A DNA stretch of 36,392 nt from an uncultured Candidatus Saccharibacteria bacterium (GCA_964360035.1 CAYHUJ010000003.1:1-36392); one strand, 5' to 3'. Shown: positions 4,957 to 33,809, counted from the first letter of the stretch. Notes: generated by a model not told the origin, from the letters alone. A program made the numbers and translations.

Positions 4957-5060
4957 TCGTCCCCCCCTCTAAAAAGCGCGGCAACAATGGCAATTATTGA
5001 AAAACTGCTTTTATAATAACAACCGCCGCCGAAAAGCGCAAATGTCAAACTTCGCGGTTT

Positions 5061-5918
5061 TTACAAATCACGCGTTGTCAGTTTCGCCTCTATTTTATTA
5101 TCCGGATGGAATTCCAGTTCCTCGTCGGTGTATTTAAAACGCGGAGCATAGCCGGTTTTTTCTTTCTTTAAACTGTTTTCAATACGCAGAATCTGAATTT
5201 TTTTTAGCAATTTCTCCAGCCAATCCCCCGCCGTTCCCCCCAAAGCCGCCTCCGGGGCTTTTTTCGGCGCGAAGCGGCCGGCCGGCCGGAAACGCAGATC
5301 GTTAAACCGTTCTTTTCCGAAAAGATTCCCTAAAATCTCCGGGGAGCCGCAAAGCGGCACTAAATTTTTAAAAAGCTGCCGCTGGTAAATATTGCCGTTT
5401 TTTCCGGCGCCAAAAGACGCCGCGGTGACGAAATGGTTCAGGCAAATTTTATCGGCGGCCTCGTCATGCGTCATTATTCTCTTGCGGCGGTAACCGAACA
5501 AACCGAAAACCAGAGCGGCGAAAAAGCGGGCGGTAAAAATCCGGTTCCGGCGGGCGAAAATTACGACGTCAAAATCGGAACGGCCGCCGACGTTGCCCAG
5601 GCACATTGAGCCGCCTCCCAGAACAAAATCGGCGAAAGGAACCAGCGAAAAAAAACGGGCTCGCTTCAAAAAAACTTTCCATTTTTTATCCGCCAGAACG
5701 TCCTGAAATTTCCGATCCGAAACGTCAAACGGCTTCGCGGCGTAAAACCCCTGCGACCGGAAAACGGCGCCGCTTCGGACAAGCCCGTCCAGTTTTTCAA
5801 GTATTGATAAAAAAGAGGCCTCGCCGTTTTCGGAAACGGCGCGCCGGAGCTCCGGCAGCGTCAGCGGGCGATTTAAAAGAGAATAAAATCCGAGAATTTC
5901 GGTTATTTTTTCAGGCAT
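5061..5918 (-). CDS. Nucleotidyltransferase-fold protein (Pol-beta type G-S...DxD) with possible N-terminal winged helix
   Basis: GGSMCLG...SDFDVV motif. ATG at 5918 overlaps the rmuC stop (ATGCCTGA) and is preferred over TTG at 5930. Confidence 0.65.
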   Translation of the reverse strand: MPEKITEILGFYSLLNRPLTLPELRRAVSENGEASFLSILEKLDGLVRSGAVFRSQGFYAAKPFDVSDRKFQDVLADKKWKVFLKRARFFSLVPFADFVLGGGSMCLGNVGGRSDFDVVIFARRNRIFTARFFAALVFGLFGYRRKRIMTHDEAADKICLNHFVTAASFGAGKNGNIYQRQLFKNLVPLCGSPEILGNLFGKERFNDLRFRPAGRFAPKKAPEAALGGTAGDWLEKLLKKIQILRIENSLKKEKTGYAPRFKYTDEELEFHPDNKIEAKLTTRDL

Positions 5919-6969
5919 CGCTTCCGTCAATTTTCTTTATTTCTTCCGAAGAAATACCGACGGCTTCGCCGCCGATTTTCAAAACGTCCTTGTCAATCTG
6001 CCGGAATTCCTTAAAAGCGCTGTTGTACATATTTACGGAAGTCTCCAAATGTCCGCCGAGTTTTTTGAAATAAGAATCAAAATTCAAAAGATGGCGGCCG
6101 AGATCGCCGACCCGTTTTCGGATTTCTTTGGCCGATTCTTCAATCTGAAGCGCTTTCAACCCCTGCAAAACCGTTTGAAGATACGCCAGAAAGGTCGTGG
6201 GGGAAACAATCATCACGCGCTTTTCGCCGGCGGCGTACTGGATCAGGTCGCGCGTTTCCGATTTGATCGCCCCCACTTTATTGACAAGCAGATCGTAATA
6301 AACCGCCTCGGCGGGTATGAACATAAAAGCGAAATCCATCGTGCCTTCCTCCGGTTTGATATACTTGGCCGTTTCGTCAATTCTCGTTTTAAGGTCGTTG
6401 CGGAAAGCCGTTTCCAATTTTGTCCGCTCCGTTTCGTTGCGCTCTTCCAAAAGCCGGTTGTAATTTTCCAAGCTGAATTTTGAATCAACGGGAATGATTT
6501 TATCGCGCACGAAAATCGCGGCGTCCACGATGACGCCGTCTTGGAAAGCGTACTGCATTTTAAAAGAGCGTGGCGGCAGAACGTTTTCTAAAACGGTTTC
6601 AAGGTAATACTCCCCCAAAATGCCCCGCTGTTTCGGATTTTTCAGAATGTCCTGCAGGTTTTGCAGCTGGTCGGCGAAATTGACGACCTGCCGGTTCGTT
6701 TCGTCCAATCTCGCCAGCCGCTCCGTCACGTCTTTTATAATCTTCACGCTTTCTCCGAATTGGTGACGCATCTGCTGCTGCATCGCCTCGCCCGACTGGC
6801 CCAGCTTGACGTCAAGCGTCCGGGCGATTTCGTTCATTTGATTTTGTAAAAGCAGGAGGGTCCCGTCGCCGGTTTCCGGTTTTTTTGCCGCTCTTTTCAG
6901 CAAAACAAAAAGCGCGGCAAAACCGCCGACAAGGAAAAGAATAATCGCCGCCAAAAGATAAAATTCCAT
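5911..6969 (-). CDS. rmuC: DNA recombination protein RmuC
   Basis: N-terminal TM plus coiled coil; KQRGILGEYYL, VDSKF, DFAFMFIPAE, VSPTT. Confidence 0.93.
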   Translation of the reverse strand: MEFYLLAAIILFLVGGFAALFVLLKRAAKKPETGDGTLLLLQNQMNEIARTLDVKLGQSGEAMQQQMRHQFGESVKIIKDVTERLARLDETNRQVVNFADQLQNLQDILKNPKQRGILGEYYLETVLENVLPPRSFKMQYAFQDGVIVDAAIFVRDKIIPVDSKFSLENYNRLLEERNETERTKLETAFRNDLKTRIDETAKYIKPEEGTMDFAFMFIPAEAVYYDLLVNKVGAIKSETRDLIQYAAGEKRVMIVSPTTFLAYLQTVLQGLKALQIEESAKEIRKRVGDLGRHLLNFDSYFKKLGGHLETSVNMYNSAFKEFRQIDKDVLKIGGEAVGISSEEIKKIDGSDA

Positions 6970-7058
6970 TTTTTTGCCTTGAATTACGAAATGCTTTTCA
7001 GATGATTTTTATTGATTTTCGTCGCGAGGCGAAGTTTAGAAAAATCAGGCAGTATAAA

Positions 7059-8150
7059 TTAACTTAGGAGCTCCTTTTTTAATTCTTCCAGAATCGCCCG
7101 GGCTTTCGCATTTAAATGTTTGGGCGTTTTCACTTCAAGCTCAACAAAGAGATCGCCGCGGCCGCCTTTCGTGCTTGGCATTCCCGCTCCTTTTATTTTC
7201 ACCGGTTCTTTGAGATTGAAGCCGGCGGGAATTTCAAAAACGACTCCGCCTCCCGAAACGGCCGGGGCTTCAATCTTGCCGCCGAGCAGAACGTCCAAGA
7301 ATCCGACTTCCTTCCTTGCGAAAAGGTCGTCCCCTTTGCGCGCGAAAACGGGATGAGGCGGGATTTTCACGATTACGTAAAGATCGCCGAAGCCGGCCTC
7401 GTTTTCGCCGGCTTCTCCGCCGCCGACGATTTTTATTATCTGTCCGTTGTCAATTCCGGGAAAAATATTTATTTCAATATTTCTCGCGCCCCTCGCTCTT
7501 CCTCCGCCGTCGCAGGAACGGCATATTTTATTCGGCGTCTGGCCGGTTCCCCGGCATTTTTCGCAAGCCCTCACCTGGGAAAAATTTCCAAAAAAGGTGT
7601 CGCGGGTTTCGCGAATCTCGCCGCGGCCGTCACAGGAAGCGCATTTTACGAAGCCGGCTTTCGGGTCGTGCCCCTTGCCGCCGCATTTTTCGCAGTAAAC
7701 AAGGGATTCAATTCCGATATTTCTCTTTCCGCCCCTAAACGCCTCCTCCAAAGTCAATTCCACGGCTATTTTCATGTCCGAGCCGCGCCGATAAGTGCGC
7801 CGTTTTTGCTTTACGCCAAGTCCTTCAAAAAAAGCGTCAAAAAAATCGCCGAGATTGGAAGAATCAAATCCTTCGCCGCCGAAATCAAATGAAAAACCGC
7901 CGAAACCGGGACCGCCGGAAAAATCAAATCCGCCGCCTGGCTGGCCGGAAAAAACGCGGCCGAAACGGTCGTATTGGGCGCGCTTTTCCCCGTTGGAAAG
8001 AATCTGGTACGCTTCGTTTATTTCCTTGAATTTCTTATCGTCGCCGCCGGTTTTGTCCGGATGGTGCTGATGCGCCAGCTTGCGATACGCTTTTTTAATT
8101 TCCTCGTCCGAAGCGCTTTTGTTTATTCCCAGAATTTTGTAATAATCCAT
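7059..8150 (-). CDS. dnaJ: Chaperone DnaJ
   Basis: J domain with HPD, G/F region and four CxxCxGxG repeats. Confidence 0.97.
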   Translation of the reverse strand: MDYYKILGINKSASDEEIKKAYRKLAHQHHPDKTGGDDKKFKEINEAYQILSNGEKRAQYDRFGRVFSGQPGGGFDFSGGPGFGGFSFDFGGEGFDSSNLGDFFDAFFEGLGVKQKRRTYRRGSDMKIAVELTLEEAFRGGKRNIGIESLVYCEKCGGKGHDPKAGFVKCASCDGRGEIRETRDTFFGNFSQVRACEKCRGTGQTPNKICRSCDGGGRARGARNIEINIFPGIDNGQIIKIVGGGEAGENEAGFGDLYVIVKIPPHPVFARKGDDLFARKEVGFLDVLLGGKIEAPAVSGGGVVFEIPAGFNLKEPVKIKGAGMPSTKGGRGDLFVELEVKTPKHLNAKARAILEELKKELLS

Positions 8151-9156: not shown

Positions 9157-11001
9157 TTAGTTTTCGGGGGGCGTCTGTTCGCTTTCCGGATTCTGGTTCT
9201 TATTGTACATCGCCGCGCCGATTTTTTGAAGTTCCAGAGAAAGCTCTTCAGCGGCCGATTTGATTTCCTCGGCGGTTTGCGAACCCCCGATCGCGGCTTT
9301 CGCTTTTTCTATTTTTTCGCCGACGGCCGATTTTAAGTCGGGGGCGATTTTGTCTCCCGCTTCCCGCAGCGACTTTTCCGCCAGATACACGGCGTTTTCG
9401 GCGGCGTTGCGCGCTTCCACCAGTTCTTTTTTCTCTTTATCCTCGTCGGCGTGCGCCCGCGCTTCCGTCGTCAACCGTTCAATTTCCTCTTTTGACAAAC
9501 CGGTTGACGCTTCAATGCGGACGGATTGCGTTTTGCCGCTCGCCTTGTCTTTCGCGGAAACGTTCAAAATGCCGTTGGCGTCAATGTCAAAAGTCACTTC
9601 AATCTGCGGAATGCCGCGCGGAGAAGGCGGAACGCCGTCAAGAATGAATTTCCCCAGATCTTTATTGCCGGACGCCATTTCCCGCTCTCCCTGAAGAACG
9701 TGGATTTCAACGGAGGTTTGATTGTCGGCGGCGGTGGAAAACGTCTGCGACTTGCCGGTCGGAATCGTGGTGTTTTTTTCAATGATTTTCGTGAAAACGC
9801 CGCCGAGCGTTTCAATGCCGAGAGAAAGCGGCGTTACGTCCAGCAGTAAAACATCCTTGACGTCGCCCTGAAGAATGCCCGCCTGCGCCGCCGCTCCGGC
9901 CGCCACGACTTCGTCCGGATTGATTCCTTTATGCGGCTCCTTGCCGAAAATTTTCTTAACCGCTTCGCCGACCGCCGGCATGCGCGTCTGGCCGCCGACA
10001 AAAATAATCTCGTTGACGTCTGCGATTTTCAGCCCGGCCTCTTCAACGGTTTTTTTCGTCAGCTCCACGGAACGGTCAATGTATTCCCTTACCAATTCTT
10101 CCAATTTCGCCCTTGTAACCTTCATCAAAAAATGCTTCGGCCCCTCTGCCGAAGAGGTGATATAAGGCAGATTGACCTCGGTTTCAAACGCGGTGGAAAG
10201 CTCATGCTTGGCCTTTTCCGCCGCCTCTTTTATCCGCTGAAGCGCCAACGGGTCTTTGGAAACGTCAATGCCTTCTTCTTTTTTGTATTCGGAAACGAGA
10301 TATTCAATAAGTTTTTTGTCAAAATCGTCCCCGCCCAGATGCGTATCGCCGCCAGTCGCCTTTACTTCCACGGTGTTATCGCCGACTTCCAATACGGAAA
10401 CGTCAAATGTGCCGCCGCCCAAATCGTAAACGACGATTTTTTCGTTTTTCTGCCTGTTTAACCCGTAAGCCAGAGCCGCGGCCGTCGGTTCGTTGATGAT
10501 GCGCCGAATCTTCAAACCGGCAATTTCGCCGGCGTTTTTCGTCGCCTGACGCTGGGAATCGTCAAAATAAGCGGGAACGGTTATTACCGCTTCTTCTATT
10601 TTTTCCCCCAGTTTCGCTTCGGCGTCGGCCTTCAGCTTCGCCAAAACCATCGCCGATATTTCTTCCGGTTTGTAAAAACGGTCGCCCATTTTCACTTCCA
10701 CGCCGCCTTCGCCGGATTCTTTCATTTCAAAAGGAAGCCAGGCCTTGTCGCGCTGGACTTCTTTGTCGGAAAATTTTCGGCCGATAAAACGCTTGACGGA
10801 GAATATCGTGTTCTTGGGATTCGTCACCGCCTGCCGCTTGGCCAAAACGCCGACGAGGCGCTCTCCCGACTTGCTCAAAGCGACGACCGACGGCGTCGTC
10901 CGGTTACCTTCGGCGTTTTCAATTATTTTCGGCTCCCCTCCTTCAATGACGGCGACGGCCGAATTGGTCGTGCCCAGATCTATTCCGATGATTTTAGCCA
11001 T
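9157..11001 (-). CDS. dnaK: Chaperone DnaK (Hsp70)
   Basis: [44 protein letters not shown]. Confidence 0.99.
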
Positions 11002-14924: not shown

Positions 14925-15016
14925 TTTCCGCCTCCTTGAATTCTTAAGTGGCAAAGAACTTACTCAAATCAGAACACGAATCCGCCCCAAAAATCAATCC
15001 GGCGGGCGGCTTGACG

Positions 15017-16010: not shown

Positions 16011-16156
16011 CGTTGGCCCCCTTTCAAAAAATCAACGAAGAACTAAAGATTCTATTAATAAAGACAACCATGACCCAAATTACTTGTCAAATTCATGCCG
16101 CAAAAGTCAATTATGGATGTTAAGCTTCCATAGGGCTTAAAAGTCATCGTCGTCTT

Positions 16157-17611: not shown

Positions 17612-17624
17612 AATGCTGATTCGT

Positions 17625-17936: not shown

Positions 17937-17978
17937 ATTAAATTCATCATATCAAAAACGCGGGAGGATCGCAATCTG

Positions 17979-18007: not shown

Positions 18008-18058
18008 CGCAAGATTATTTTCAAAAAAATCCGAAACTTGACGGAGGCGGGAATCGTT

Positions 18059-18504: not shown

Positions 18505-18512
18505 GATTGATC

Positions 18513-21388: not shown

Positions 21389-21399
21389 TTCCGCCTTAT

Positions 21400-21999: not shown

Positions 22000-22024
22000 G
22001 AGCGCTTGTTCAAATCCTACACTC

Positions 22025-22336: not shown

Positions 22337-22381
22337 AATGTCGGTTATTATTATTCAACCGCGGCGCGCTGTCAACACCGC

Positions 22382-22418
22382 CAACAATCTAAGGACGTCT
22401 GACGTCCTTAGATTGTTG
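22382..22418. repeat. Perfect 37-bp palindrome (18-bp arms, 1-nt centre)
   Basis: caacaatctaaggacgtc-t-gacgtccttagattgttg. Confidence 0.92.
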
Positions 22419-22435
22419 AAGGAAGGATGTCCGCT

Positions 22436-22786
22436 TTAATTTATCTTTATTATCGCCAAAACGGCCGTAGAAACCAGAATACCGAAAACAAGGCCGGCGC
22501 CGGCTAAAACGTAAGACAGAAACCGCTCCCGGTCAAAAACGGCGGATGCTAAAAATAAATTTACCAAAAGCGCCATCAGCGCGATCGCCAAAATTTCATA
22601 AAGGTCGGAGGCCGTTCCGAGGGCATCCACGCCGCGAAAGGCGTCCCAGTGGATGATAAGAGGAGAAGCGCGATCGGAGTACTCCACGTAAACGGCGGAA
22701 AATCCGATAATTAAAAAAAACAGCGCGGCGATAAAAAGCGCGATCAGATATTTTTCATTGATTATTTTCGGAAGTTTGAAGATCAT
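22436..22786 (-). CDS. Small three-TM membrane protein
   Basis: Hydrophobic segments with a PLIIHW...GVD loop. Confidence 0.7.
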   Translation of the reverse strand: MIFKLPKIINEKYLIALFIAALFFLIIGFSAVYVEYSDRASPLIIHWDAFRGVDALGTASDLYEILAIALMALLVNLFLASAVFDRERFLSYVLAGAGLVFGILVSTAVLAIIKIN

Positions 22787-22845
22787 CTCATTTCAGCGGT
22801 AAAACTTTGGCGCGGTTATACGCATCTCGCGCGAGGTTGGTTATG

Positions 22846-22918
22846 TGCCCCCACGGGGAATCGAACCCCGGTTTCGGCGCTGAGAACGCCGCGTCCTGGG
22901 CCACTAGACGATAGGGGC
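22846..22918 (-). tRNA. tRNA-Glu(CTC)
   Basis: GCCCCTA...CGGCG-TTCTCAG-CGCCG...GGTTCGATTCC...TGGGGGC-A; CCA not encoded. Confidence 0.95.
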
Positions 22919-24133: not shown

Positions 24134-24155
24134 ATTGACGAAAATTACGCTCATT

Positions 24156-25790
24156 TCAATCAATGATTAAATTATCCGGCGAAACGCCGTAGTAATTCAA
24201 AGCGAACAGGGCCAGTTCCCTGAAAGCCGGCACGACCGTCATTCCGGCAAGCGTCGCCCGCGGTTTGTCCAATTTTATCAGAATAATAAACCGGGGATTG
24301 GATACCGGCGCGAAACCGACGAAAGTATGGATAAAACTATCCGAGTATCCGCCTTTTGTAAAGTCGGGAATCTGCGCCGTTCCGGTTTTGCCGGCCACGC
24401 GATAATTCGGAATGGCGGCGATTTTCGCTTTTTCCACGGCCGATTCCATCATTTTCGCCGTTTGTCCGGCCGCTTCCGCGCTGACAACGCGGCGAATAAC
24501 CGTCGGTTCAAGCGAAGCGTTGACGCGCGGCCGCATCAGAACGCCGCCGTTGGCGATAGCCGCGACGGCGTTGATCAATTGGAGCGGAGTGACGGAAACG
24601 CCCTGCCCGAAAGAAGCGGTGGCAAAATTAATGTCGCGGGAATTGCTTTTCAGATTTTTCAAACTTCCGGGCAATTCTCCCGGAAGATCAACTCCGGCTT
24701 TTTCCTCAAAACCGAATTTTTTCAAATAATCGTAAAAAAGGGCGTGGCCGATGCGGCGTTCGGCAAAAACAGCGCCGGTATTGACCGAGCCCTCAATAAC
24801 GCCGGTCATCGTCAGTTTTCCGTGCGCCTTAAGATCCCAGTTTTTGATGGTGCGGCCGTTTATGGTCAACTTGCCGTTGTCGTAATAGGCGGTATCGGGC
24901 GTTATCTTTCCGGAGTCCAGACCGGCCGCCATGGTAATGACTTTAAAGACGGAGCCGGGTTCGTAAATTTTTTGCGTCGCCGGATTTAAAAACAATTTAA
25001 CGCTTGATTTGTCGTAATTATTCAAATCAAAATCGGGATTGCCGGCCATCGCCAAAATTTTTCCCGTTTTCGGCTCTTCAATAATGATGGTTCCTCCTTC
25101 GGCTTCAAATTTTTCCGTCAGTCCGGCCAGAATTTTTTCCGATTCGTCCTGCAGATTGCGGTCAACGGTCAAAACGACGTCTTCGCCATAATCGGCGCTC
25201 GTAATTTTATCGCCGACGGCCCCTTTCACTTTTCCGTAAAGCCGCTCGTCATAAAAAAGCTCGATGCCGTAGCGACCGGCCGTTTTTTCGTCATCAACGC
25301 TGGCGCCGACAAAACCGAGAAGGTGGGAGGCGGAATTGCCCATCGGATAGTAGCGCATCATTCGGCCGTCAACGTAGATCCCCCCCAACCCCGACTCTTT
25401 CGCGGCCGTTATTTGTTGCGCCGCCGCTTTTTTAACCAATAATTCGTAAAGGTCGCCTTTTTTACCAAACATTTTCAGCAATTTTTCCGCGTCAATTTCC
25501 ACGATGGGCGAGAGGATTTCCGCCGCTTTTTCCTTGTCCGCGATTTCATCGGGAACGGCGAAAATGGACGCAAATTCCTTGTTAAGCGCCGCCGGAATGA
25601 GATTTCCGTTCCGATCGGTAAAATAAATTTTGCCCCGCCTGGATTCCAGAAGATCGGCCGGCTGGTTTTGGGAAGCCGCCCGCGCGGAATAATAATCCCC
25701 TTTTTCAAGCTGAATATTATAAAGGCCGAAAATCAAGGCGGCGTATAAAACGCCGAAAAAGCTTATCGCGATTATAAAGCGGACGCCCAT
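24156..25790 (-). CDS. ftsI: Class B penicillin-binding protein (FtsI-like)
   Basis: RRGKIY, RYYP, GIE, EPGSVFK (SxxK), SVN (SxN), GKTGTAQ; dcw context. Confidence 0.9.
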   Translation of the reverse strand: MGVRFIIAISFFGVLYAALIFGLYNIQLEKGDYYSARAASQNQPADLLESRRGKIYFTDRNGNLIPAALNKEFASIFAVPDEIADKEKAAEILSPIVEIDAEKLLKMFGKKGDLYELLVKKAAAQQITAAKESGLGGIYVDGRMMRYYPMGNSASHLLGFVGASVDDEKTAGRYGIELFYDERLYGKVKGAVGDKITSADYGEDVVLTVDRNLQDESEKILAGLTEKFEAEGGTIIIEEPKTGKILAMAGNPDFDLNNYDKSSVKLFLNPATQKIYEPGSVFKVITMAAGLDSGKITPDTAYYDNGKLTINGRTIKNWDLKAHGKLTMTGVIEGSVNTGAVFAERRIGHALFYDYLKKFGFEEKAGVDLPGELPGSLKNLKSNSRDINFATASFGQGVSVTPLQLINAVAAIANGGVLMRPRVNASLEPTVIRRVVSAEAAGQTAKMMESAVEKAKIAAIPNYRVAGKTGTAQIPDFTKGGYSDSFIHTFVGFAPVSNPRFIILIKLDKPRATLAGMTVVPAFRELALFALNYYGVSPDNLIID

Positions 25791-26083
25791 GACTGATTCG
25801 CGTTTAAGTATTGGGGATTGCCGTCCAGAGTCAATCCGTTATCCAGAGCGGCCGCTTCCAGGGCGGAGGCGTCCACCAGTCGGTAATAATCGTTTTTCAG
25901 CTCAACGTTGGCGAGTTCGCCGTCGCGGAGTAAAAGAGATTGCCGCTCTATTTCATGGCGCAAACTGACGGTTTGATTGTATTCAAAAACATAAGCCGTG
26001 CCGGCCAAAATCAAAGCCGCCGCCAGGAGCAGAATCCGGACATTTTCTTTTATAAGACCCCTTCTCGGTTGAAATATGGTCAT
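25772..26083 (-). CDS. FtsL-like bitopic coiled-coil protein
   Basis: TM plus leucine-rich coil, located between rsmH and ftsI. Confidence 0.65.
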   Translation of the reverse strand: MTIFQPRRGLIKENVRILLLAAALILAGTAYVFEYNQTVSLRHEIERQSLLLRDGELANVELKNDYYRLVDASALEAAALDNGLTLDGNPQYLNANQSWASAL

Positions 26084-26101
26084 AATGATAAAATTTAGAA
26101 T

Positions 26102-26995
26102 TTAAAATGGGGAATTCGGCCTTTTCAGCGCCGCGGCCCTTAATTTCGCCGAACGGCTGCGGGGATTGGCGCGAATTTCTTCCGGCGACGGCGATACCGG
26201 TTTTTTCGTTAAAATCAAAAAATTTTTTTCTTTTTCCATTTTTTTGAAATATTTTTTTACCAAACGATCTTCCAGAGAGTGAAAGGAGATAACGGCGACG
26301 CGCCCCTCCGATTTTAAAATTTTTTCAAGACCGCCCAACAGCCGTTCCAGATTTTCCAGTTCGCCGTTAACGTAAATCCTTAACGCCTGAAAAGTCCTCG
26401 TCGCGGGATGAATCCGCCCCCGCTCGTAGTTTTTCGGAAGCGCTTCTCCGACGATACCCGCCAAGTCCCCGCTCGTTTCTATCCGTTTTTTTCTTCGCCG
26501 TTCCACTATTGCCTTGGCTATCTTTCTGGAAAACCGCTCTTCCCCGAATTTGTAAATGACGTCAGCCAGTTCCTTTTCGCCCAGTCCGTTCACGACGTCC
26601 GCCGCCGTTACGCCGCTTTTGGAATCGTCATAGCGCATTATCAGCGGCTCGTCTTTTGAAAAACTGAAGCCCCTCCCCCCAAGCTGTTCCGAGGAAAACC
26701 CCAGATCAAGCAGCAGGCCGTCGGCTTTCGGCAATTCCAATCGCTTTAAAATCTCCGGCAAATCGGCGTAATTTCCCCGCGTCAAAACGATATTCCGCCG
26801 GCCGCCAAACCCGCCCTCCGCCCGTTTTAACGCTTTTGCGTCCCAATCAACCGCCAAAAGCTTTCCCCGAGGGCCGATTTTTTCCAAAATCGCCGCCGCG
26901 TGCCCTCCCCCGCCGAAAGTTCCGTCAATGAAAAACTCTCCGGATTTCGGGTCAAGTGTTTTTATCGCTTCCTTTAAAAGAACGGGGATGTGCAT
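26102..26995 (-). CDS. rsmH: 16S rRNA m4C1402 methyltransferase RsmH (MraW)
   Basis: HIPVL, DGTFGGGGHA, DLGFSS, HPATRTFQALRI, SFHSLEDR, NPRSRSAKLR. Confidence 0.97.
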   Translation of the reverse strand: MHIPVLLKEAIKTLDPKSGEFFIDGTFGGGGHAAAILEKIGPRGKLLAVDWDAKALKRAEGGFGGRRNIVLTRGNYADLPEILKRLELPKADGLLLDLGFSSEQLGGRGFSFSKDEPLIMRYDDSKSGVTAADVVNGLGEKELADVIYKFGEERFSRKIAKAIVERRRKKRIETSGDLAGIVGEALPKNYERGRIHPATRTFQALRIYVNGELENLERLLGGLEKILKSEGRVAVISFHSLEDRLVKKYFKKMEKEKNFLILTKKPVSPSPEEIRANPRSRSAKLRAAALKRPNSPF

Positions 26996-27058
26996 ATCGG
27001 CTTCGTTATCTTCTCGCTTCGCTATGATTAAAATTTCTTGTCATCGCATTGCCGAAAG

Positions 27059-27490
27059 CTAAATTCCCAATTCCCCCAATTTCTCCGCTATTTCGTCCGA
27101 GGCGCCTTCCGTTTTTTTCTTGTACGCGCTCCAGTTTCCGGCGTCCCAAATTTCCATCCTGTTGTAAAGTCCGGCGACAACCGCTTCTTTTTTCAAATCG
27201 GCGTATTGCCGCAGATAGTCCGGTATCAAAATCCTTCCCTGCGAATCAATTTCCGCTTCCGTCGCCCCCGCCAGCATCAGCCGGGCGAAGGCGCGGGAGT
27301 TCGCCTGCGCCAGCGGCAAAGAAATCAGCTTTTGCGCCAACGCTTCCCAGTCGCTCGCGGTAAAAACGAAAAGGCACCGGTCAAGTCCGCGCGTAACGAT
27401 AACGGCGTTTCCCATCTTGCTTCTGAATTTCGCCGGCATCGCCACCCTCCCCTTTGCATCCAAATTGTGTTTATACTCTCCCAATAACAT
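27059..27490 (-). CDS. mraZ: Transcriptional regulator MraZ
   Basis: GEYKHNLDAKGR...DSQGRILIP...EIW. Confidence 0.97.
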   Translation of the reverse strand: MLLGEYKHNLDAKGRVAMPAKFRSKMGNAVIVTRGLDRCLFVFTASDWEALAQKLISLPLAQANSRAFARLMLAGATEAEIDSQGRILIPDYLRQYADLKKEAVVAGLYNRMEIWDAGNWSAYKKKTEGASDEIAEKLGELGI

Positions 27491-27537
27491 AAAACTTTTT
27501 CCAAATTTTAAATTCTCAATTCCCGACTTCGCTTAAG

Positions 27538-27635
27538 TTATCCCCAGAAACGGACAAAAACGGGCACTTATCCCCATAGTTATCCACACTTCCCCACTTT
27601 TGTTTAATGTTAAGCCACCGCGACAACAAAGTCAA
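27538..27635 (-). promoter_or_regulatory. mraZ promoter with MraZ-type repeats and overlapping DnaA boxes
   Basis: TTGACT, 17 nt, TAACAT (27635-27607); TGGGG-N5-TGGAT-N5-TGGGG; TTATCCACA at 27580-88 and TTATCCCCA at 27538 and 27568. Confidence 0.72.
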
Positions 27636-27639
27636 AAAT

Positions 27640-27668
27640 AATAAAAGCCCTTAAAAGGGCCTTTATTG
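27640..27668. terminator. Hairpin / probable terminator
   Basis: aataaaagccct-taaa-agggcctttatt. Confidence 0.5.
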
Positions 27669-27773
27669 AAGCGGCTTTTCGGATTTATTCAAAAGTTTTC
27701 CACAGCGGCCGTCGGACTCGCAAAAGCTTCGCGGTTTTAAAACACCGCGAAAAATATTGCGGCGCTGAAGGAC

Positions 27774-28511
27774 TTATGCCTGCAAAAGCTTTTTTAAAAT
27801 AAGCATTCCCTCGTTGCCGTAAGCGCCGGCTTTTTGCATCGCTTCCGAAAAGTGGTCTTTGCCGCGCAACGCCGGCAAAGACGGAGAGTGCGGAATTATT
27901 TCATAGGAAACGCCGCAGGCGGCGGCAACTTCGTCCAGGGGCGCGTCATAAGGCCTGTCGTAATAAGGATACAGCCGCGCCGCGCCGCCGGGTTTCAGTA
28001 TTCGCGCTATTTCCCCGATGTTCACTCTTTTGCTTTCCGGCGTCGTCAGGTAAAGCGTTCCAAACAGCGAAAAGACGACGTCAAAAGAATTGCTTTGAAA
28101 CGGCAATTTCGTGAACAAAGCGGAAATGAGGTTCATTTTTCGCGCTCGCTGGCTTTCCGAAAGAAGAAGGTCGCCGTGGCGCTTCGCCAAAGACGCGTCC
28201 AGGCAGATTATTTTCGTATCGGAGAACCGATGAGCCAGCTGGCGGGCGAATTTTTGGAACTCCCCCGAACCGAGATCTAAAATTGTTTTTCCTGCCAGCT
28301 CTCCGGCGTCAATCTGAAGAAATTTTTCGTATTCCCACAAATCGCGGTCGGTCAGCATCGCTTTTTCCGGCTGTTCCCCTCTTCTGATTTTTTCTTCCGA
28401 TTCTCTCCCTGAATAACGCCCCGCGCCGTAAATAAAAAAACGGCGGCGATTTTCGTCGTTATTTTCATTGTCCGAATTATCCGAAAAAACCTGATTCAAA
28501 TTTTCCCGCAT
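27774..28511 (-). CDS. Class I SAM-dependent methyltransferase
   Basis: ILDLGSG, LPFQSNSFDVV, RILKPGG. Confidence 0.85.
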   Translation of the reverse strand: MRENLNQVFSDNSDNENNDENRRRFFIYGAGRYSGRESEEKIRRGEQPEKAMLTDRDLWEYEKFLQIDAGELAGKTILDLGSGEFQKFARQLAHRFSDTKIICLDASLAKRHGDLLLSESQRARKMNLISALFTKLPFQSNSFDVVFSLFGTLYLTTPESKRVNIGEIARILKPGGAARLYPYYDRPYDAPLDEVAAACGVSYEIIPHSPSLPALRGKDHFSEAMQKAGAYGNEGMLILKKLLQA

Positions 28512-28560
28512 TTACCTATAAATTATGACACAAACCCCGATCGTTAAAAAGGCCCCGTTC

Positions 28561-28635
28561 TGGTGGGCGCGATAGGAATCGGACCTATGGTCTTCGCAAT
28601 GTGAATGCGACGTTTTACCATTAAACTACGCGCCC
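28561..28635 (-). tRNA. tRNA-Val(CAC), CCA encoded, atypical T loop (TCCGA)
   Basis: GGGCGCG...TCGCA-TTCACAT-TGCGA...ATAGG-TCCGATT-CCTAT-CGCGCCC-A-CCA. Confidence 0.92.
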
Positions 28636-28684
28636 GTTCACCAAAGCTCATCTCAAAAATAACAAATAAAAGAAAAAAAAGCAA

Positions 28685-28719
28685 AACAAAAAACCCCGCT
28701 TATCGGGGATTTTTGTTTG
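28685..28719 (-). terminator. Terminator after rplL
   Basis: aaacaaaaaaccccg-cttat-cggggatttttgttt. Confidence 0.7.
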
Positions 28720-28738
28720 ATTTTGATTCAACGCTTTT

Positions 28739-29131
28739 CTATTGCAATTCCGCCGTCGCGCCGACTTCTTCCAGTTTTTTCTTCAATTCATCGGCATCGG
28801 CCTTGCTCAAGCCCGTCTTGACGGCTTTGGGGGCGGCGTCAACGATGTCTTTCGCTTCCTTCAGGCCGAGTCCCGTCACTTCTTTGACGATCTTAATGAC
28901 GTTTATCTTTTGATCTCCCACGGCTTTCAAGACGACGTCGTAAGCGGATTTTTCCGCCGCGGCCTCTCCGCCGCCGGCTGACGCGGCCGCTACCGGCATC
29001 GCCGCCGAAACGCCGAATTTTTCTTCAAGCACCTTGACGAGCTCGGCGAGCTCCATCACGGTCAATTTCTCCACTTTGGCAACAATGTCCTGAAATTTCT
29101 CCGGAACATTGACGTTTTTTTCTTCCAACAT
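28739..29131 (-). CDS. rplL: 50S ribosomal protein L7/L12
   Basis: [15 protein letters not shown]...KINVIK...GLGLKEAKD. Confidence 0.98.
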
Positions 29132-29165
29132 TTTTTTTATTTGATTAATGTTAATGACGATTTTT

Positions 29166-29660
29166 TTACTTCGCGGCCGCTTTCGCTTTTTCGCTCAAGA
29201 CGTACATAAACGCCCGGATGGGTCCGGCCAAAACGCCGACAACCCGGCCAAGTAAGACATCCCGCGACGGCAGACTTCCGACGGCCATCACCGTCTCGGC
29301 GGCAAGAAATTCTTTTTTCTCCAGATCGTAAGCGCCGAGAATTTTGAATTTCTTGTTTTCTTTGGCGAACTTGGCAAGCGGAGACGCCGCATCGTTCAGT
29401 TCCAGCGGAGAAAAGATCGTTCCCATCTGGGCTTCAAACCGTTCCGGGTCAAAATCTACTCCGGTTTCTTTCAAGGCGATTCTTAAAAGCTTCTTTTTTA
29501 CGACCTTGAAAGACGCTCCCTTCTCCGAAAACGCCCGCCGCAATTTCCGCAATTCTTCCACGCTCACTCCGCCGAAATCGGCGAAAAGCAGATTGCGGCT
29601 TTTTTCCACGGCCGCTTTGCTTTCTTTGATTGACCGCGCCTTTTCTTCCCGAGTCAGCAT
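29166..29660 (-). CDS. rplJ: 50S ribosomal protein L10
   Basis: Upstream of rplL; [11 protein letters not shown]...VVKKKL...LPSRDVLL. Confidence 0.95.
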
Positions 29661-29679
29661 ATTTTTTTTAAATAAATAA

Positions 29680-29785
29680 AAACGGCCTTTTGAGCCGCGG
29701 ACAACGCCAAAAATATTCGGCGTCCTCGACGGGACTTGTTTCGCCTCAATTTCGCTTTGAAGCGGACGCCCGTTGTCTGCGGATT
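29680..29785 (-). ncRNA. L10 leader (rplJ autoregulatory RNA)
   Basis: CCGCAGACAACGGG...CCCGTCGAGG matches the conserved AGAC..GG/CC..CGAGG core; followed by hairpins upstream of rplJ. Confidence 0.7.
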
Positions 29786-29792
29786 CGCGATA

Positions 29793-29821
29793 ATACTACG
29801 GCGTCTCCTGTTTCGTGTCAA
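29793..29821 (-). promoter_or_regulatory. rplJ-rplL promoter embedded in the 3' end of pcm
   Basis: TTGACA (29821-16), 17 nt, TAGTAT (29798-93). Confidence 0.7.
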
Positions 29822-30434
29822 TAGCGCCGTCCTTGACCAGCGGAACGAAGCTGTAGCCGAAAAACTCTTTGGTTTTGAATTCGTCGGCGCCCGTTTTGTC
29901 AATTAAAACGATACTCTGGCCGACCGGCGCCACGATTCGTCCTCCTATTTTAAGTTCGCTCTTCCAAACGTCGGGAATTTTATCGGCCGAAGCGGCGGCG
30001 ATGATTTTATCGTAAGGGGCGTTTTCCGGATACCCGCGCGAACCGTCGCTAAGCAAGACGTTCGCCGCTCCCGACTCAATAAACCCGCGTTTGGCGATGT
30101 TTTTTTCCGCCATAAAACGCAGCTCCGAAATTCTCTCCAGCGCCGTCACTTTGCAGCCCAACTGTGCCAAAAGAGCCGTTTGCCATCCCGAACCGGCGCC
30201 GATTTCCAAAACGTTCTCCCCTTCCTTCGGCTCCAGAAGTTCCAGCATAAAAGCCACGACCAGCGGCTGGGAAATCGTCTGCCCGTGACCGATGGAAAGC
30301 GGCTCATTGGCATAAGCCCTGCTTTTCAGATCTTCCGGCACGAAATCGGCCCGGTCGATTTTTCCAAACGCCTCAATAATCGCAGGCGTTTTCAAATAGC
30401 CGGCTGAAACCAGATAATTCACCAGTTCCTCCAT
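29796..30434 (-). CDS. pcm: Protein-L-isoaspartate O-methyltransferase
   Basis: AYANEPLSIGHGQTISQP, VLEIGAGSGW, APYDKI, FVPLV. Confidence 0.95.
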   Translation of the reverse strand: MEELVNYLVSAGYLKTPAIIEAFGKIDRADFVPEDLKSRAYANEPLSIGHGQTISQPLVVAFMLELLEPKEGENVLEIGAGSGWQTALLAQLGCKVTALERISELRFMAEKNIAKRGFIESGAANVLLSDGSRGYPENAPYDKIIAAASADKIPDVWKSELKIGGRIVAPVGQSIVLIDKTGADEFKTKEFFGYSFVPLVKDGAIDTKQETP

Positions 30435-30522
30435 TAATTATCATTATACCAAAAATAAAGAAAAAAAGGAGGAATCCGGAAGGAGGCGGTGAATTTTAAA
30501 TAAAACCTCCGCGAAGGCGGAT

Positions 30523-30549
30523 AAAAAAACCCGACCTTGACGGTCGGGG
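30523..30549 (-). terminator. Intrinsic terminator after the phosphoesterase gene
   Basis: CCCGACC-gtcaa-GGTCGGG followed by T7 on the minus strand. Confidence 0.75.
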
Positions 30550-30554
30550 GTGCC

Positions 30555-31634
30555 TCACTTTTTATTGTCGTCAAACATGATCGGCGCGTAAATCGTCACG
30601 CCGCGCTTTCTGTCTATCAAAAAGAACGCTTGCTTCGGCGGTTCAAAGTCCGCCTTAATTGAAATCGCGAACGCGTTATAACCGATCAGCGATCCGTTGG
30701 AGATGAACCTCACGTCGTGCTTGGCCTGATGGAAATGGCCGAACACGTCCAAGTCGGCATGCTTGGCCCGGCTCCATTGCGAAATGGCTTTATTGACCGG
30801 AATATAGACGCCACCCACGCCGCCCTGATAGCGGATCATGTGGCCGTGATGGAATCGGATCGTTCGTCCGTATACTTCCACGTACGAATGATAACCGTCG
30901 GCCAACAGAAACTTCACGCGCGGCTCGCTTTTGAATTCCCGGGCGAGACTCGCGTAAATCATATATTCCAGCGAGTGGCCCCGTTCGGTGGTAACGCGCG
31001 TTTTCGGAGTGGTGCGCGCGTGATTGCCGGAATGGCACGGAATGACGATTTCGTCAAATTTCCCGTTTTCCAGCAAAAAAACGATGCCGGAAGTCAGCAG
31101 TTCGCGGGCCTTATTCGCCGCGTCAATCGGGAGCAGCTGGTTTCCTTCCGCGAGCTCCTCGTGAATGTCGTTGCTGAAAAAATCTCCCAACAGCGCCAGC
31201 ACCAGCGTCTTGATAACAGTGGCCTGCCTGTTGATTTCCACCAAGCGCAGTCCGTTGCGAAAAAACTGCGCCGCGCGGCGGCAGGCGATATCAAGATCAA
31301 ATCTATTCAGACCGTTGACGACTCCGGGATCAACCCGCTCTTCAATATGCCAATCGCTGGCAATCATAAAGGCGGTTGACTCCGAATCGCCGGCAGGAGT
31401 TTTCGGATTGATCTTGAACGTTTCCGCCGGCCCGCTAAAGGCCACGAGCGCTTCGTTCTGACGCTCCAACTCGTGCAGTTCGCCGAGCGCGGAGCGGTAC
31501 TTCGCCTTCAGGCGCTTCAATTCCCGGTCGCCTTTCGCGAGCCGGCTCTCAAGGCGCATTTCGTCGCGCGCCTTTAAACGAACAGGGTGCTTTTCTCCGT
31601 CGTTCTCAACATTCCCCTTCTTTTTCTTGGCCAT
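30555..31634 (-). CDS. Calcineurin-like metallophosphoesterase with N-terminal coiled coil
   Basis: SDWH, LGDF, SGNH, HHGH, GHFH, NGSL motifs; SD AAGGAGG. Confidence 0.88.
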   Translation of the reverse strand: MAKKKKGNVENDGEKHPVRLKARDEMRLESRLAKGDRELKRLKAKYRSALGELHELERQNEALVAFSGPAETFKINPKTPAGDSESTAFMIASDWHIEERVDPGVVNGLNRFDLDIACRRAAQFFRNGLRLVEINRQATVIKTLVLALLGDFFSNDIHEELAEGNQLLPIDAANKARELLTSGIVFLLENGKFDEIVIPCHSGNHARTTPKTRVTTERGHSLEYMIYASLAREFKSEPRVKFLLADGYHSYVEVYGRTIRFHHGHMIRYQGGVGGVYIPVNKAISQWSRAKHADLDVFGHFHQAKHDVRFISNGSLIGYNAFAISIKADFEPPKQAFFLIDRKRGVTIYAPIMFDDNKK

Positions 31635-31724
31635 TTCTCCTCCTTATGGCTTATGTTGTGGCTTATGCGATTATGAAAGATCTCGCGATAATTATCGTAC
31701 AAGAAGTTCTTTTTTGTAAAGAGG

Positions 31725-31760
31725 AAAAAATCCCGCCGTTAGTCAACCTTGCGGCGGGAT
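31725..31760 (-). terminator. Intrinsic terminator
   Basis: ATCCCGCCG...CGGCGGGAT followed by a T run. Confidence 0.7.
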
Positions 31761-31764
31761 GAAA

Positions 31765-32058
31765 TCATTGCCGGGGGAAATATCTTCCCAGCAGCTCGCT
31801 TTCGTCGGTGGAGTAAACGCTCAACTCCAACCGCAAAACTTTAATCTGCTCGTCTATCGCCTCCAAAGAAACGCGCGACAGCTCAAATCCTTTAATCATC
31901 AGCATTAAAAAGTTCGAATCGGCCGTTCTGGCGCGGCAAAATTCATCGTGCGCCGTTTTGCCGAGCGCCAGCCAGGCACGCCGCAAATTTTCCATCGCGA
32001 CGATATTGTCGCAGATTTTCTTTTCCCGATCGCTCAGCCCTTTAACGATTTCGTCCAT
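31765..32058 (-). CDS. Hypothetical helical protein
   Basis: ATG 32058 preceded by GAGGAGG; followed by a terminator. Confidence 0.6.
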   Translation of the reverse strand: MDEIVKGLSDREKKICDNIVAMENLRRAWLALGKTAHDEFCRARTADSNFLMLMIKGFELSRVSLEAIDEQIKVLRLELSVYSTDESELLGRYFPRQ

Positions 32059-32134
32059 CTCACCCTCCTCGCGGCTGGTTTTGATCGCCGGATTATGAAT
32101 ATAAAAGAGCCGCTTTATTGTCGTTAAAAGCGGC

Positions 32135-32515
32135 TCAAAAATCAAGCCGTTGACGCCTTTTCAGCAATTCGTCAAACAGCTTTTCGTAAATAAACTTCAG
32201 ATTATCCAGCTCTCCGCCACGCATTATTTCCAGCGCGCTGTGACCGCCGAAATCGTCGCGGGGCGTTATCATCCATAAAACAGCCATTTCCTTCTTTAAA
32301 GAATATCCGTCGGCGAACAGACAGCTCATGAGATTGCCGATGACCCTAAGATAGGAAATGCGCTCTTCAATGTCGGAAACGGCCGACCAATGTTTCGGAA
32401 CGCCGCGCAGTTCCGCAGAAGCGCAGCCGAGAAAAATATCCTGATCTTTTCTGGAAATACCCAATCCGTCCAGCGTCATCCGAATGGCGCCGATTTCCGT
32501 CGCGGTTACCGGCAT
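32135..32515 (-). CDS. Antitoxin Xre/MbcA/ParS-like protein (DUF2384-type C-terminus)
   Basis: A..WM.TP...FGG.SALE.M..G....L pattern; TGATG-coupled to the upstream transglycosylase. Confidence 0.65.
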   Translation of the reverse strand: MPVTATEIGAIRMTLDGLGISRKDQDIFLGCASAELRGVPKHWSAVSDIEERISYLRVIGNLMSCLFADGYSLKKEMAVLWMITPRDDFGGHSALEIMRGGELDNLKFIYEKLFDELLKRRQRLDF

Positions 32516-33354
32516 CACGAATCCCTTTCTTTCAGGTAATCGCGAATGGCTTCGCGATAAGCTAAAGTCGCTTTGACGTAAGCGCGACTGTGATTGTATT
32601 GAAAAATCGCCTTCTCCATCGCCGCCGCGTCGCCGCTCCGGTAGCCGGCCGCTTTCAAAAAATTGGCGGCGGAAAAAATGGCGTCTTCAAAATCAAACAG
32701 GTCAATTTTGCCGTCGCCGTTGCCGTCAACCGCCCGCAAGCGATAGCTGGAAGGCACGAATTGAACGAGCCCAAAAGCGCCCGCCCACGAACCTTTCAAC
32801 TCAAAAATGTCCGCCTTGCTTTCACGAACGAGCAAAAACAAACTCACCAACTCTCCCTTGGCCCAGTCGGACCTTCGTTTGGAGTGGAAAAAGAGAGTGC
32901 TTAGATTATTGATGACGAGTTCGTTTCCCAGATATTTTCCGAAATACGATTCCACCCGCATTATCGCCAAAACGGCAAAACGATCAACGCCGTATTTTTT
33001 TTCGGCCTTTTGAAAAGCGAATTCGTAGCGATTGGCGACGTATTTTCCGGACGCGAGCGATTCTTTATTCAGCAAGCCGAATTCCTCGGAAAAATAGTTG
33101 AACGATTTGGCGGAGATTTTTGATTTCAGCCGCCGGGCCAGTTCGGCGTTAAAACGAACGCGCTCGTCCAGAAAGACGGCGTTAATTTCCGCCTGGCTGA
33201 AACCCTTTTTCCGCAATTCCTTGAATAAGGATTGATATCGCGCCGAGGAAAGCGCCTCCGACGGTTTTTGCGGCTCAACGGCCGCCCAAGACGGCGGCGA
33301 AAACAGCCATAGCGAACAAACGGCGACCAACGGAAGAATCTTCGGGATCTTCAT
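32515..33354 (-). CDS. Secreted lytic murein transglycosylase, MltB family
   Basis: Signal peptide; VESYFG catalytic Glu; GSWAGAFGLVQFVPSS; EF-hand-like DGNGDGKID; YNHS. Confidence 0.92.
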   Translation of the reverse strand: MKIPKILPLVAVCSLWLFSPPSWAAVEPQKPSEALSSARYQSLFKELRKKGFSQAEINAVFLDERVRFNAELARRLKSKISAKSFNYFSEEFGLLNKESLASGKYVANRYEFAFQKAEKKYGVDRFAVLAIMRVESYFGKYLGNELVINNLSTLFFHSKRRSDWAKGELVSLFLLVRESKADIFELKGSWAGAFGLVQFVPSSYRLRAVDGNGDGKIDLFDFEDAIFSAANFLKAAGYRSGDAAAMEKAIFQYNHSRAYVKATLAYREAIRDYLKERDS

Positions 33355-33448
33355 AGCGACGACCTCCTCTTTGAGAGTTTATGACATTTTCAAATTACTG
33401 CCATAAGCATAAAACTCCGCAACGACAACGTCAATAAAGTACGCGCGC

Positions 33449-33486
33449 AAAAAAAAATCCGCCGAATTGCTTCGGCGGTGGGGATT
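33449..33486 (-). terminator. Intrinsic terminator
   Basis: CCGCCGAA-gcaa-TTCGGCGG followed by a long T run on the minus strand. Confidence 0.75.
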
Positions 33487-33763
33487 AATGCTTTCTTTTT
33501 TCGTAAAAGGAAACGTCCGTCTTAAACCTTCCCGACGCCTTATTCAACCGATAAGCGACAACTCGGCCAAAAAAATTATCAACGTTGTCCGCGGCGATCA
33601 AGAGACAACCCCGGAAAGTCAGAGCTTTGGCCTCTCCCAGAACGCGATAATCGCTCCGGTCGCCTAAAAGTTCGTAAATTCTTTTCCGAAAAACCGCCCT
33701 CCCTATTTTCTTTTCAATAATCCGGAAATGAACATCAGCCTTTCTGATTCTCAATCTGCCCAT
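33485..33763 (-). CDS. Basic hypothetical protein downstream of tRNA-Trp
   Basis: ATG 33763 preceded by AAAAGGAGG; followed by a terminator. Confidence 0.6.
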   Translation of the reverse strand: MGRLRIRKADVHFRIIEKKIGRAVFRKRIYELLGDRSDYRVLGEAKALTFRGCLLIAADNVDNFFGRVVAYRLNKASGRFKTDVSFYEKRKH

Positions 33764-33809
33764 TGTTTCCTCCTTTTTGATTTTCAAGGTTCCGCCGCCA
33801 AATCTCCGG

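Follow-up and report, generated by a model that had tools for sequence, protein, structure and literature searches.

A boxA-like motif in the leaders of AAGGAGG-led accessory genes of a groundwater Parcubacteria genome

The rRNA operon (rrn) antiterminator combines boxB, boxA and boxC with NusB, NusE, NusA, NusG, S4 and SuhB, but boxA is also known from mRNAs. In the portions of Baniulyte et al. 2017 (PMC5725501) drawn on here, which use the consensus GYTCTTTAANA, it stands in front of suhB in Escherichia coli and Salmonella and of a parE-like toxin gene in Citrobacter koseri. The same portions place the suhB boxA 6 nucleotides (nt) from the Shine-Dalgarno (SD) sequence and state that repression survives insertions of up to 100 bp, and that the boxA-bound Nus factors repress translation, reportedly via an RNA loop to the polymerase. 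In cyanobacterial 16S-23S spacers the string GAACCTTGAAAA is annotated as boxA, according to an excerpt of PMC8461337. Here we describe a boxA-like motif in the leaders of protein genes of an ultra-small groundwater Parcubacteria bacterium, which belongs to the candidate phyla radiation (CPR). The stretch of DNA in which an initial annotation had noticed it, hereafter the window, is the complete contig C3 (36,392 bases) of genome G000, which has 690,295 bases in 50 contigs and a completeness rating of 100%.

The layout in G000 is like that of suhB and the parE-like gene, as far as the cited portions of PMC5725501 go, in that a boxA-type word is found between the transcription start and the ribosome-binding box, a few to some tens of nt away from the latter, and that the genes behind it are not rRNA genes. 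The number of sites is different, for those portions give 0-7 putative boxA sites per gamma-proteobacterial genome and expect few targets per species, against about 25-40 candidates in the 690-kb G000. They also describe an end effect at suhB that includes Rho-dependent termination and needs SuhB, whereas neither gene was found in G000, and no Nus-factor gene in G000 carries the motif. With the rrn antiterminator the leaders have the word family in common, and NusB, S10, NusA and NusG are encoded in G000, but the motif here precedes protein genes, usually at the extreme 5' end and with no hairpin before it, and the leaders have no boxC-like partner. The string annotated as boxA in the cyanobacterial spacers (PMC8461337, same excerpt) is identical to a 12-mer found at three leaders in G000, one of which (33792-33781) likewise follows a tRNA gene; the phylum is however another one, the element is on mRNAs and not in an rRNA spacer, and the binding of this variant by NusB-S10 is putative. 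As boxA on mRNAs is already known, what is new is that there are about 25-40 such leaders in one 690-kb genome, of a lineage without rho and without an anti-SD sequence. Judged by titles and the openings of abstracts, we found no report on boxA-type leaders in CPR bacteria.

The motif in the leaders of AAGGAGG-led genes

The motif is real and strand-specific. It is limited to accessory genes led by an AAGGAGG box, where it lies on or close to the predicted start of the transcript. The gene set consisted of 674 crude genes (the longest open reading frames, ORFs, scored by codon usage), and 85 of them have an AAGGAGG-type box 3-11 nt ahead of the start. The spacing of the box peaks at 5-6 nt before the start and its positional peak is at -13 to -8, with start codons that were partly chosen by the box itself. 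Among the remaining genes, here called non-SD genes, are dnaK, dnaJ, grpE, groES and groEL, all without such a box. The -10 box ends 5-10 nt before the ATG in 46 of the 180 non-SD genes that have a predicted sigma70-type promoter, which predicts leaderless mRNAs for these genes, many of them core genes, and others have short A/T-rich leaders. Minus-strand starts in the window with a TATAAT-like -10 box 5-10 nt upstream are those at 17936, 15507, 22336, 18504, 28511 and 30434. For the AAGGAGG-led genes the median distance from -10 box to start is 43 nt, none of 54 being below 15 nt, and their leaders are unstructured (median minimum free energy -4.2 kcal/mol, mean z -0.29).

Expectation-maximisation (EM) on the 24 nt after the predicted -10 box gave the motif A-G-[T/A]-[T/A]-[T/C]-T-T-T-[G/A]-A-[A/C], with 8.5 bits of information and a site of posterior >0.5 in 38 of 53 leaders. 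The assigned site begins 6 nt past the -10 box in 18 leaders, 7 nt past it in 4 and 8 nt past it in 5, together 27 of the 38, and at 11-15 nt in eight others. The most conserved column is the G at position 2 (0.94), and the A at position 10 reaches 0.80. Words of the motif recur in AAGGAGG-led leaders on many contigs, as a listing of the leaders makes plain.

A score of at least 8 bits at 4-9 nt past the -10 box was reached by 23 of 53 AAGGAGG-led leaders and by none of 98 non-SD leadered genes, with a model that was trained on the same leaders. Because that model scored the leaders it had been trained on, a two-fold cross-validation by contig was run, and 19 of 53 held-out leaders reached 8 bits or more at 4-9 nt past the -10 box. 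The controls, 98 non-SD leadered genes scored by both half-models, did so in 3 of 196 scorings (Fisher p = 8e-12). Each half recovered the motif, as cAGtTtTTTgA and aGtTcTTT.Aa. Matches of at least 10 bits to the full model numbered 30 on the sense strand and 5 on the antisense strand of the leaders from which it was trained.

Counts of exact words point the same way. The patterns GAACCTTGAAAA and GYTCTTTAANA were fixed before counting. The former has three exact copies in the genome, both strands considered, and all three fall within the sense leaders of the AAGGAGG-led class, which cover 6,633 of 1,380,590 positions (0.48%). When one mismatch was allowed, 5 of 10 copies were in these sense leaders, and no copy occurred in the 29,385 positions ahead of non-SD genes or in antisense orientation. 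GYTCTTTAANA with at most one mismatch gave six matches in the AAGGAGG leaders (0.9/kb), none antisense of them, and 0.09-0.24/kb in five other compartments. The perfect form of this gamma-proteobacterial consensus does not occur in sense leaders, and all six of its genome matches are antisense in coding DNA. The initial annotation had pointed out that the core genes of the window had no comparable match and had made its proposal depend on a motif more frequent and more fixed in position ahead of SD-led genes than expected by chance; cross-validation and compartment counts bear this out genome-wide, and the absence from core genes agrees with the 0 of 98 non-SD leadered genes.

Applied to entire upstream regions, EM was less successful, with a likelihood (99.8) above that of five shuffles (70.9-83.9) but below that of four random non-SD sets (103.5-123.5), in which terminator-like motifs of a GC stem and T-run dominate. 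Since the non-SD sets were not surpassed, discriminative k-mers and anchoring on the -10 box were used instead. Among the k-mers, GAACCTT is found in 6 of 72 upstream regions of AAGGAGG-led genes and 0 of 314 others, AGTTTTT in 12 of 72 against 3 of 314, and AGTTTTTT in 9 of 72 against 1 of 314. We also considered a promoter for an alternative sigma factor or one of the extracytoplasmic function type, with the motif as -35 and AAGGAGG as -10, and rejected it because their spacing is not constant but ranges from about 3 to more than 40 nt.

All seven strings that first suggested the motif are present on the minus strand of the window. They are listed here with their surroundings (positions from the first base of the window; lengths of genes in amino acids, aa).

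4995-5006, minus strand: motif site 1, AGTTTTTCAATA, 6 nt past the -10 box TATTAT (5018-5013), -35 box TTGCGC at 5041-5036, posterior 0.97; downstream a G-rich box at 4970-4961, ATG at 4956 and a 120-aa gene without Pfam family.
14949-14960, minus strand: motif site 2, AGTTCTTTGCCA, fits the motif (posterior 0.91), weak promoter upstream; downstream AAGGAGG at 14937-14931, ATG at 14924 and a 101-aa gene without Pfam family.
16033-16044, minus strand: site 3, AGTTCTTCGTTG, marginal, 4 nt past the -10 box TAGAAT (16054-16049).
16010-15642, minus strand: gene downstream of site 3, a single-domain response-regulator receiver.
31672-31683, minus strand: motif site 4, AGATCTTTCATA, 7 nt past the -10 box GATAAT (31696-31691), -35 box TTTACA at 31720-31715, posterior 0.98; downstream AAGGAGG at 31645-31639, ATG at 31634 and a 359-aa gene without Pfam family.
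32103-32136, minus strand: intrinsic terminator of an Xre-like gene, containing the string first taken as site 5 (32111-32100).
33387-33399, minus strand: motif site 6, AGTAATTTGAAAA, 6 nt past the -10 box TATGCT (33411-33406), -35 box TTGACG at 33434-33429, posterior 0.99; downstream AGAGGAGG at 33370-33363, ATG at 33354 and a lytic transglycosylase gene (SLT_2).
33781-33792, minus strand: motif site 7, an exact GAACCTTGAAAA, 16 nt past tRNA-Trp (33880-33808); downstream AAGGAGG at 33775-33769, ATG at 33763 and a 92-aa gene without Pfam family.

Five of the seven strings thus fit the motif. Sites 1, 4, 6 and 7 are good, and sites 1, 4 and 6 are at the predicted +1. At the marginal site 3 the model favours the neighbouring T-run TGATTTTTTGA, with a posterior of 0.47, and behind site 2 the next gene (14616-14098) carries an AAGGAGG of its own. 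The string at 32111-32100 was rejected as a motif site, as it is the 3' arm of a hairpin with its T-tract. Read from the sequence, the terminator consists of a stem of 10 bp (32136-32127 / 32116-32107) closing a loop of 10 nt, with the T-tract at 32106-32103. It is taken as an intrinsic terminator because the Xre-like gene upstream has its stop codon where the stem begins and a T-tract follows, and because both are kept in the related genome G001, with G-U wobble changes in the stem and a longer T-run. Of the promoters that had been quoted, TTGCGC-17-TATTAT (5041-5013) and TTGACG-17-TATGCT (33434-33406) stand, each with the motif 6 nt on, while TTGATT-17-GACAAT lies within the terminator hairpin. 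Site 7 is probably inside a transcript, since there is no convincing promoter between tRNA-Trp and the motif.

BoxA likeness, relatives and the AAGGAGG box

The columns of the motif parallel GYTCTTTAANA one by one. The 16S and 23S genes of the organism itself are absent from the G000 assembly, and the rrn leaders of relatives were therefore used for the comparison. Within the order, 9 of 16 rrn leaders have a match of at least 10 bits to the model derived from the mRNA leaders, and matches of at least 8.5 bits occur at 2.9/kb in rrn leaders against 0.25/kb in the interiors of 16S genes. The best sites are AGAACTTTGACAAT/T (in two genomes), AGAACTTTGATAAT, AGGACTTTAACAAT, AGCTTTTTTAAAAC and TGTATTTTGACAAA. 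They lie about 25-40 nt into the leader, and most of those that were viewed are, by eye, right after a hairpin, which is the classical boxB-boxA order. Conversely, the rrn-derived pattern GAAC[CT]TT[GAT]A[AC]A has 11 matches in G000, of which six fall in AAGGAGG leaders on the sense strand. In several rrn leaders the word GGCTCT[T/G]AAAA stands at the beginning, 6-7 nt past the -10 box. The motif resembles boxA, as had been proposed, and the resemblance extends to a AGAACTTTGAC(AAT)-type element that rrn leaders of this order have behind a hairpin.

A scan of metagenomes for a closer rrn operon, with a 24-nt stretch of the 16S of G001, gave 34 contigs, none from the same genus and with a best 16S identity of 91% over 349 nt; the 16S-23S spacer of G001 has no boxA-type word. 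The strongest conserved word of the rrn leaders of the order (loci L002-L012, L048, L060 and L064) is another one, TTTTTAGTTGTCCCAA, of which some trailers carry the complement (TTGGGACAAC-type), and from their complementarity the two probably form a leader-trailer processing stem. Many rrn spacers of the order also have a common hairpin, GTTGATCGAGGAGCC...CTCGA, shortly past 16S.

G001 is the sole genome of the same genus and family as G000, with the 3' half of its 16S present, and has 76-87% nucleotide identity to it across the region with the sites. At site 4, G001 keeps the -35 and -10 boxes, the motif (AGATCTTTCATAA in G000 and AGGTCTTTTAAAA in G001) and AAGGAGG, while the spacer between motif and box diverges, and at site 6 the orthologue has the motif AGTGTTTTAAAAA at the same place. 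In G003, a genome from another family, 11% of the genes have AAGGAGG-type boxes, and several leaders after a -10-like box read AGTTCTTCAAC..., AGTTCTC-AAGGAGG or AGTTCTTCT-AAGGAGG, with AGTTCTTC-type versions as well. We inspected 30 occurrences of GAACYTTGAMAA in 29 loci of the order. Four were flagged automatically as having a purine box and a start after them, and by eye the order promoter, motif, purine box and start was seen in five loci (G221, G197, G189, G028 and G001); one other occurrence was in an rrn leader. The layout of promoter, motif, AAGGAGG and start recurs in four other families of the order.

As for the Nus factors, the suggested check found nusB (C6:24431-24814), preceded by rpmF and a terminator, together with nusA, nusG and rpsJ, which encodes S10 (C13:11553-11837), but neither rho nor suhB.

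The label "SD-led" is itself a puzzle, because the lineage is without an anti-SD sequence, judged by the 16S of relatives, and the box is kept. All 13 of the 16S 3' ends in the order, including that of G001, read ...GGATCA followed by an A/T-rich tail, with no CCTCC, and no conserved CCTCC was found anywhere in the 16S genes of the order that were examined. In the wider class GGATCACCTCCTT (the anti-SD) is present in 36 of 151 genomes. The protein uL1 was not found in G000, which fits an anti-SD-less subgroup; loss of the anti-SD is published for a subgroup of Parcubacteria that largely overlaps the group lacking uL1, as the consulted part of Tsurumaki et al. 2022 (PMC9297842) has it. The AAGGAGG box is kept in G001 all the same, and as it retains both this conservation and an SD-like spacing, something must read it. 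Words rich in A and T before non-SD starts were considered as complements of the A/T-rich 16S tail, and this was dropped since the peaks are confounded by -10 boxes and the ATG. Two copies of CCTCCTT, 7 nt apart at 30493-30473 on the minus strand, closely precede the -10 box of a gene that is nearly leaderless (start 30434). Apparently they are part of a terminator region, where GGAGG pairs with CCTCC before a T-run, and on the opposite strand they give two AAGGAGG boxes before a 4-codon ORF.

Explanations for the motif

We tentatively read the motif as the form that boxA takes in this lineage, by which NusB-S10 would be loaded on about 25-40 leadered mRNAs of accessory function, a reading to which we give slightly less than an even chance. 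The boxA-type element would be at or near the 5' end of these messages, and as nascent RNA it would recruit NusB-S10, which together with NusA and NusG may then stay attached to the RNA polymerase. The outcome could be a faster elongation that is resistant to pauses and hairpin terminators, or a control of the access of ribosomes to the nearby start region, as at suhB of E. coli. From the gene content, the effect is probably a control of elongation or of translation and not a countering of Rho. The initial annotation had named protection from termination as one role, but classical Nus protection against Rho is without a target here because rho was not found, which makes that outcome unlikely. 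Either of the two outcomes would tie the expression of the gene class to the free pool of NusB and S10, and hence to ribosome synthesis. The motif is not confined to +1, with site 7 after a tRNA and 8 of 38 sites at 11-15 nt, which speaks for an element of the RNA rather than of the promoter. We favour boxA because it is the only explanation that accounts for the rrn likeness, the strand specificity, the conservation beyond the T-run and the sites away from +1.

Several results weigh against it. The motif family is loose (8.5 bits) and has what may be called dialects, GAACCTT, GTTCTTT and AGTTTTTT, and one protein pair may not bind them all. Three features of the motif would be equally compatible with an effect on initiation: its fixed start 6-8 nt past the -10 box, a G that is nearly invariant at position 2, and the T-run. 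Counted in 81 genomes of the order, GAACYTTGAMAA has 78 matches (in 45 genomes) against 92 for a reversed control, and with no excess in raw counts it is only the context that is special. The rrn comparison is partly circular because the rrn sites were found with the mRNA-derived model, and when GYTCTTTAANA was used in 12 rrn leaders the best match was a weak one, with one mismatch in 3, two in 5 and three in 4; shuffled rrn leaders reach at most one mismatch in 92 of 2400 trials (about 4%). De novo discovery on the rrn leaders gave GAaCTTTgaCAA, mixed with -35 boxes (TTGACAA). In a genome rated 100% complete, rho gave no match with Rho_RNA_bind (PF07497) or TIGR00767, and there was no match to the SuhB type (inositol-monophosphatase family, PF00459), which leaves the known system two parts short. 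No motif was seen upstream of nusB, nusA, nusG and rpsJ, and there is thus no sign of autoregulation. Finally, the metatranscriptome run X15, which contains 19% of the sampled words and is possibly a library with DNA in it, gave 38 short contigs on 16400-36392, at a depth of about 2-4 and scattered over genes, from which no start, end or strand could be read.

If the boxA reading is true, dozens of boxA-led accessory messages would make the Nus factors a global regulator, and this would be a first handle on the control of gene expression in candidate-phyla bacteria, which have few classical regulators. A wider version, which we regard as quite improbable, is that boxA and AAGGAGG make up a second expression channel for about 5-10% of the genes, parallel to leaderless initiation, in which NusB-S10 would mark the transcripts and a partner other than 16S would read the box. 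Nus would then be a genome-wide regulator of the accessory class and not a dedicated rRNA factor. The puzzle is in any case sharpened, with ribosomes that have no anti-SD and a gene class that still keeps a perfect and well-spaced AAGGAGG box, and the gene lists, the motif model and the promoter geometry make the questions of boxA and of AAGGAGG testable.

The motif could instead be an element of the 5' untranslated region for another reader, an RNA-binding protein or small RNA (S1-type, CsrA-type or a nuclease guard), and together with AAGGAGG it would then be the signal by which leadered mRNAs are expressed on ribosomes without an anti-SD, which we think rather unlikely. The strict co-occurrence of motif and box, none of the 98 non-SD leadered genes having the motif, would be expected from such a partnership, and so would a box that keeps its spacing and its conservation in G001 where 13 of 13 16S ends lack CCTCC and uL1 was not found. 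No candidate for the reader was identified, however, the likeness to rrn leaders is left unexplained, and one bipartite site is hard to reconcile with a spacing of motif and AAGGAGG anywhere between about 3 and more than 40 nt.

An effect on the RNA polymerase itself is also conceivable. Reiterative, UTP-sensitive transcription is known at pyrBI, codBA and upp of E. coli, where a purine start is followed by a T-run within the first 8-10 transcribed bases, and leaders in G000 have a predicted start of this kind. The motif would then be an initially transcribed sequence causing slow promoter escape or UTP-sensitive reiterative transcription, with the A at +1, the G at +2 (in the pocket for the core recognition element) and the T-run at +3 to +8. 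This agrees with the position of the motif 6, 7 or 8 nt past the -10 box in 27 of 38 sites, with the G at position 2 as the most conserved column, with the enrichment of AGTTTTTT and with the unstructured leaders. A run of at least three T in the first 8 or so predicted transcribed bases marks the AGTTTTTT and CTTT members, and is absent from those with GAACCTT. We nevertheless hold the reading to be unlikely. Many members have two or three T only (GAACCTTGAAAA, AGATCTTTCAT). The conservation goes beyond the T-run, to the A at position 10 and to an identical 12-mer in three unrelated leaders; site 7 and eight other sites are away from +1; and in rrn leaders the same element comes behind a hairpin, about 25-40 nt inside the leader. 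The genes in G000 are not genes of pyrimidine metabolism either, bar one thymidylate-kinase-like gene, and they differ from the E. coli cases in their many short T-runs and conserved flanks.

A role as an anti-SD in cis, in which the pyrimidine tract pairs with AAGGAGG and masks the start or forms a protective 5' stem, is very unlikely. CCTT, CTTT and TTTT can pair with AAGG, AAAG and GGAG, and four or more pairs between motif and box are present in the minimum-energy fold of 7 of 29 leaders, but the folds are weak and no better than shuffles (by the mean z given above). There is no room for a loop in G003, where motif and box directly adjoin or are separated by 2 nt (AGTTCTC-AAGGAGG and AGTTCTTCT-AAGGAGG), and no co-variation of motif and box variants is apparent by eye. 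That the motif is a product of chance, of T-rich words in AT-rich intergenic DNA, is hardly credible: the family is degenerate, with 766 model matches of at least 10 bits genome-wide, one of the seven sites is a terminator T-tract and whole-region EM did not exceed the non-SD sets, but the strand bias (30 against 5), the cross-validation (19 of 53 against 3 of 196), the three exact 12-mers confined to 0.48% of the sequence, the fixed position relative to the -10 box and the conservation in G001 all speak against it.

Genes behind the motif and other features of the window

The genes had been described as orphan or accessory. The accessory functions are confirmed, but not all of the genes are orphans, as 22 of the 40 genes with motif or box that were scanned elsewhere in the genome have a Pfam family (E <= 0.01, several of these matches being below the curated cut-off) and 18 have none. 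Among the families are a Pup ligase, three B12-binding radical-SAM enzymes, three GNAT or formyl transferases, a thymidylate-kinase-like protein, three M12-type metalloproteases, a trypsin-like protease, NifU, alanine dehydrogenase, a Fic protein, NeuB, amidase_3, a cation-efflux protein, DUF218 and an HDOD protein. The motif genes of the window itself are a lytic transglycosylase, a receiver domain and four proteins without Pfam family. A recent horizontal origin of the AAGGAGG-led genes is not supported because their composition is close to that of the rest of the genome, with slight shifts in GC (0.525 against 0.515) and GC3 (0.62 against 0.60).

Two groups of these genes deserve a description of their own. 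Two paralogous astacin-like genes of G000 (C22:~9330-9393 and C23:~5680-5743) have a common leader, in which the motif (AGTTTTTCAAC / AGTTTTTTAAC) is followed by an identical GC-rich hairpin, GGCCGTCCCCGCGCGGGAC..GCCGG, and then by an AAGGAGG-type box. At C10:16599-21699 there is a run of four AAGGAGG-led genes, one of which is the Pup-ligase homologue with an exact GAACCTTGAAAA in its leader. Next come an ORF of 52 aa and a gene of 520 aa, the ligase being the one that was scanned, and the run could represent a cluster for Pup-type tagging in a member of the CPR.

The window contains seven tRNA genes, and a scan with Rfam returned these seven only. It further contains a chaperone block, hrcA-grpE-dnaK-(unknown)-dnaJ, with groES-groEL farther along the strand, and it encodes a K+/H+ antiporter, a pilin-like gene and many small genes without Pfam family. 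In many bacteria a tRNA cluster is followed by rpmG, tRNA-Trp, secE and nusG. The order in the window is rpmG (34113-33944), tRNA-Trp (33880-33808) and then the 92-aa gene without Pfam family (33763-33485), and nusG is on contig C22, apparently directly after a secE-like reading frame. In the pilin-like gene (16157-17611), contigs from an independent groundwater DNA run skip 213-215 bases at 16617-16833, and the contigs of the RNA library have loose ends at the same places, which suggests that this segment of the pilin-like surface protein is variable among strains.

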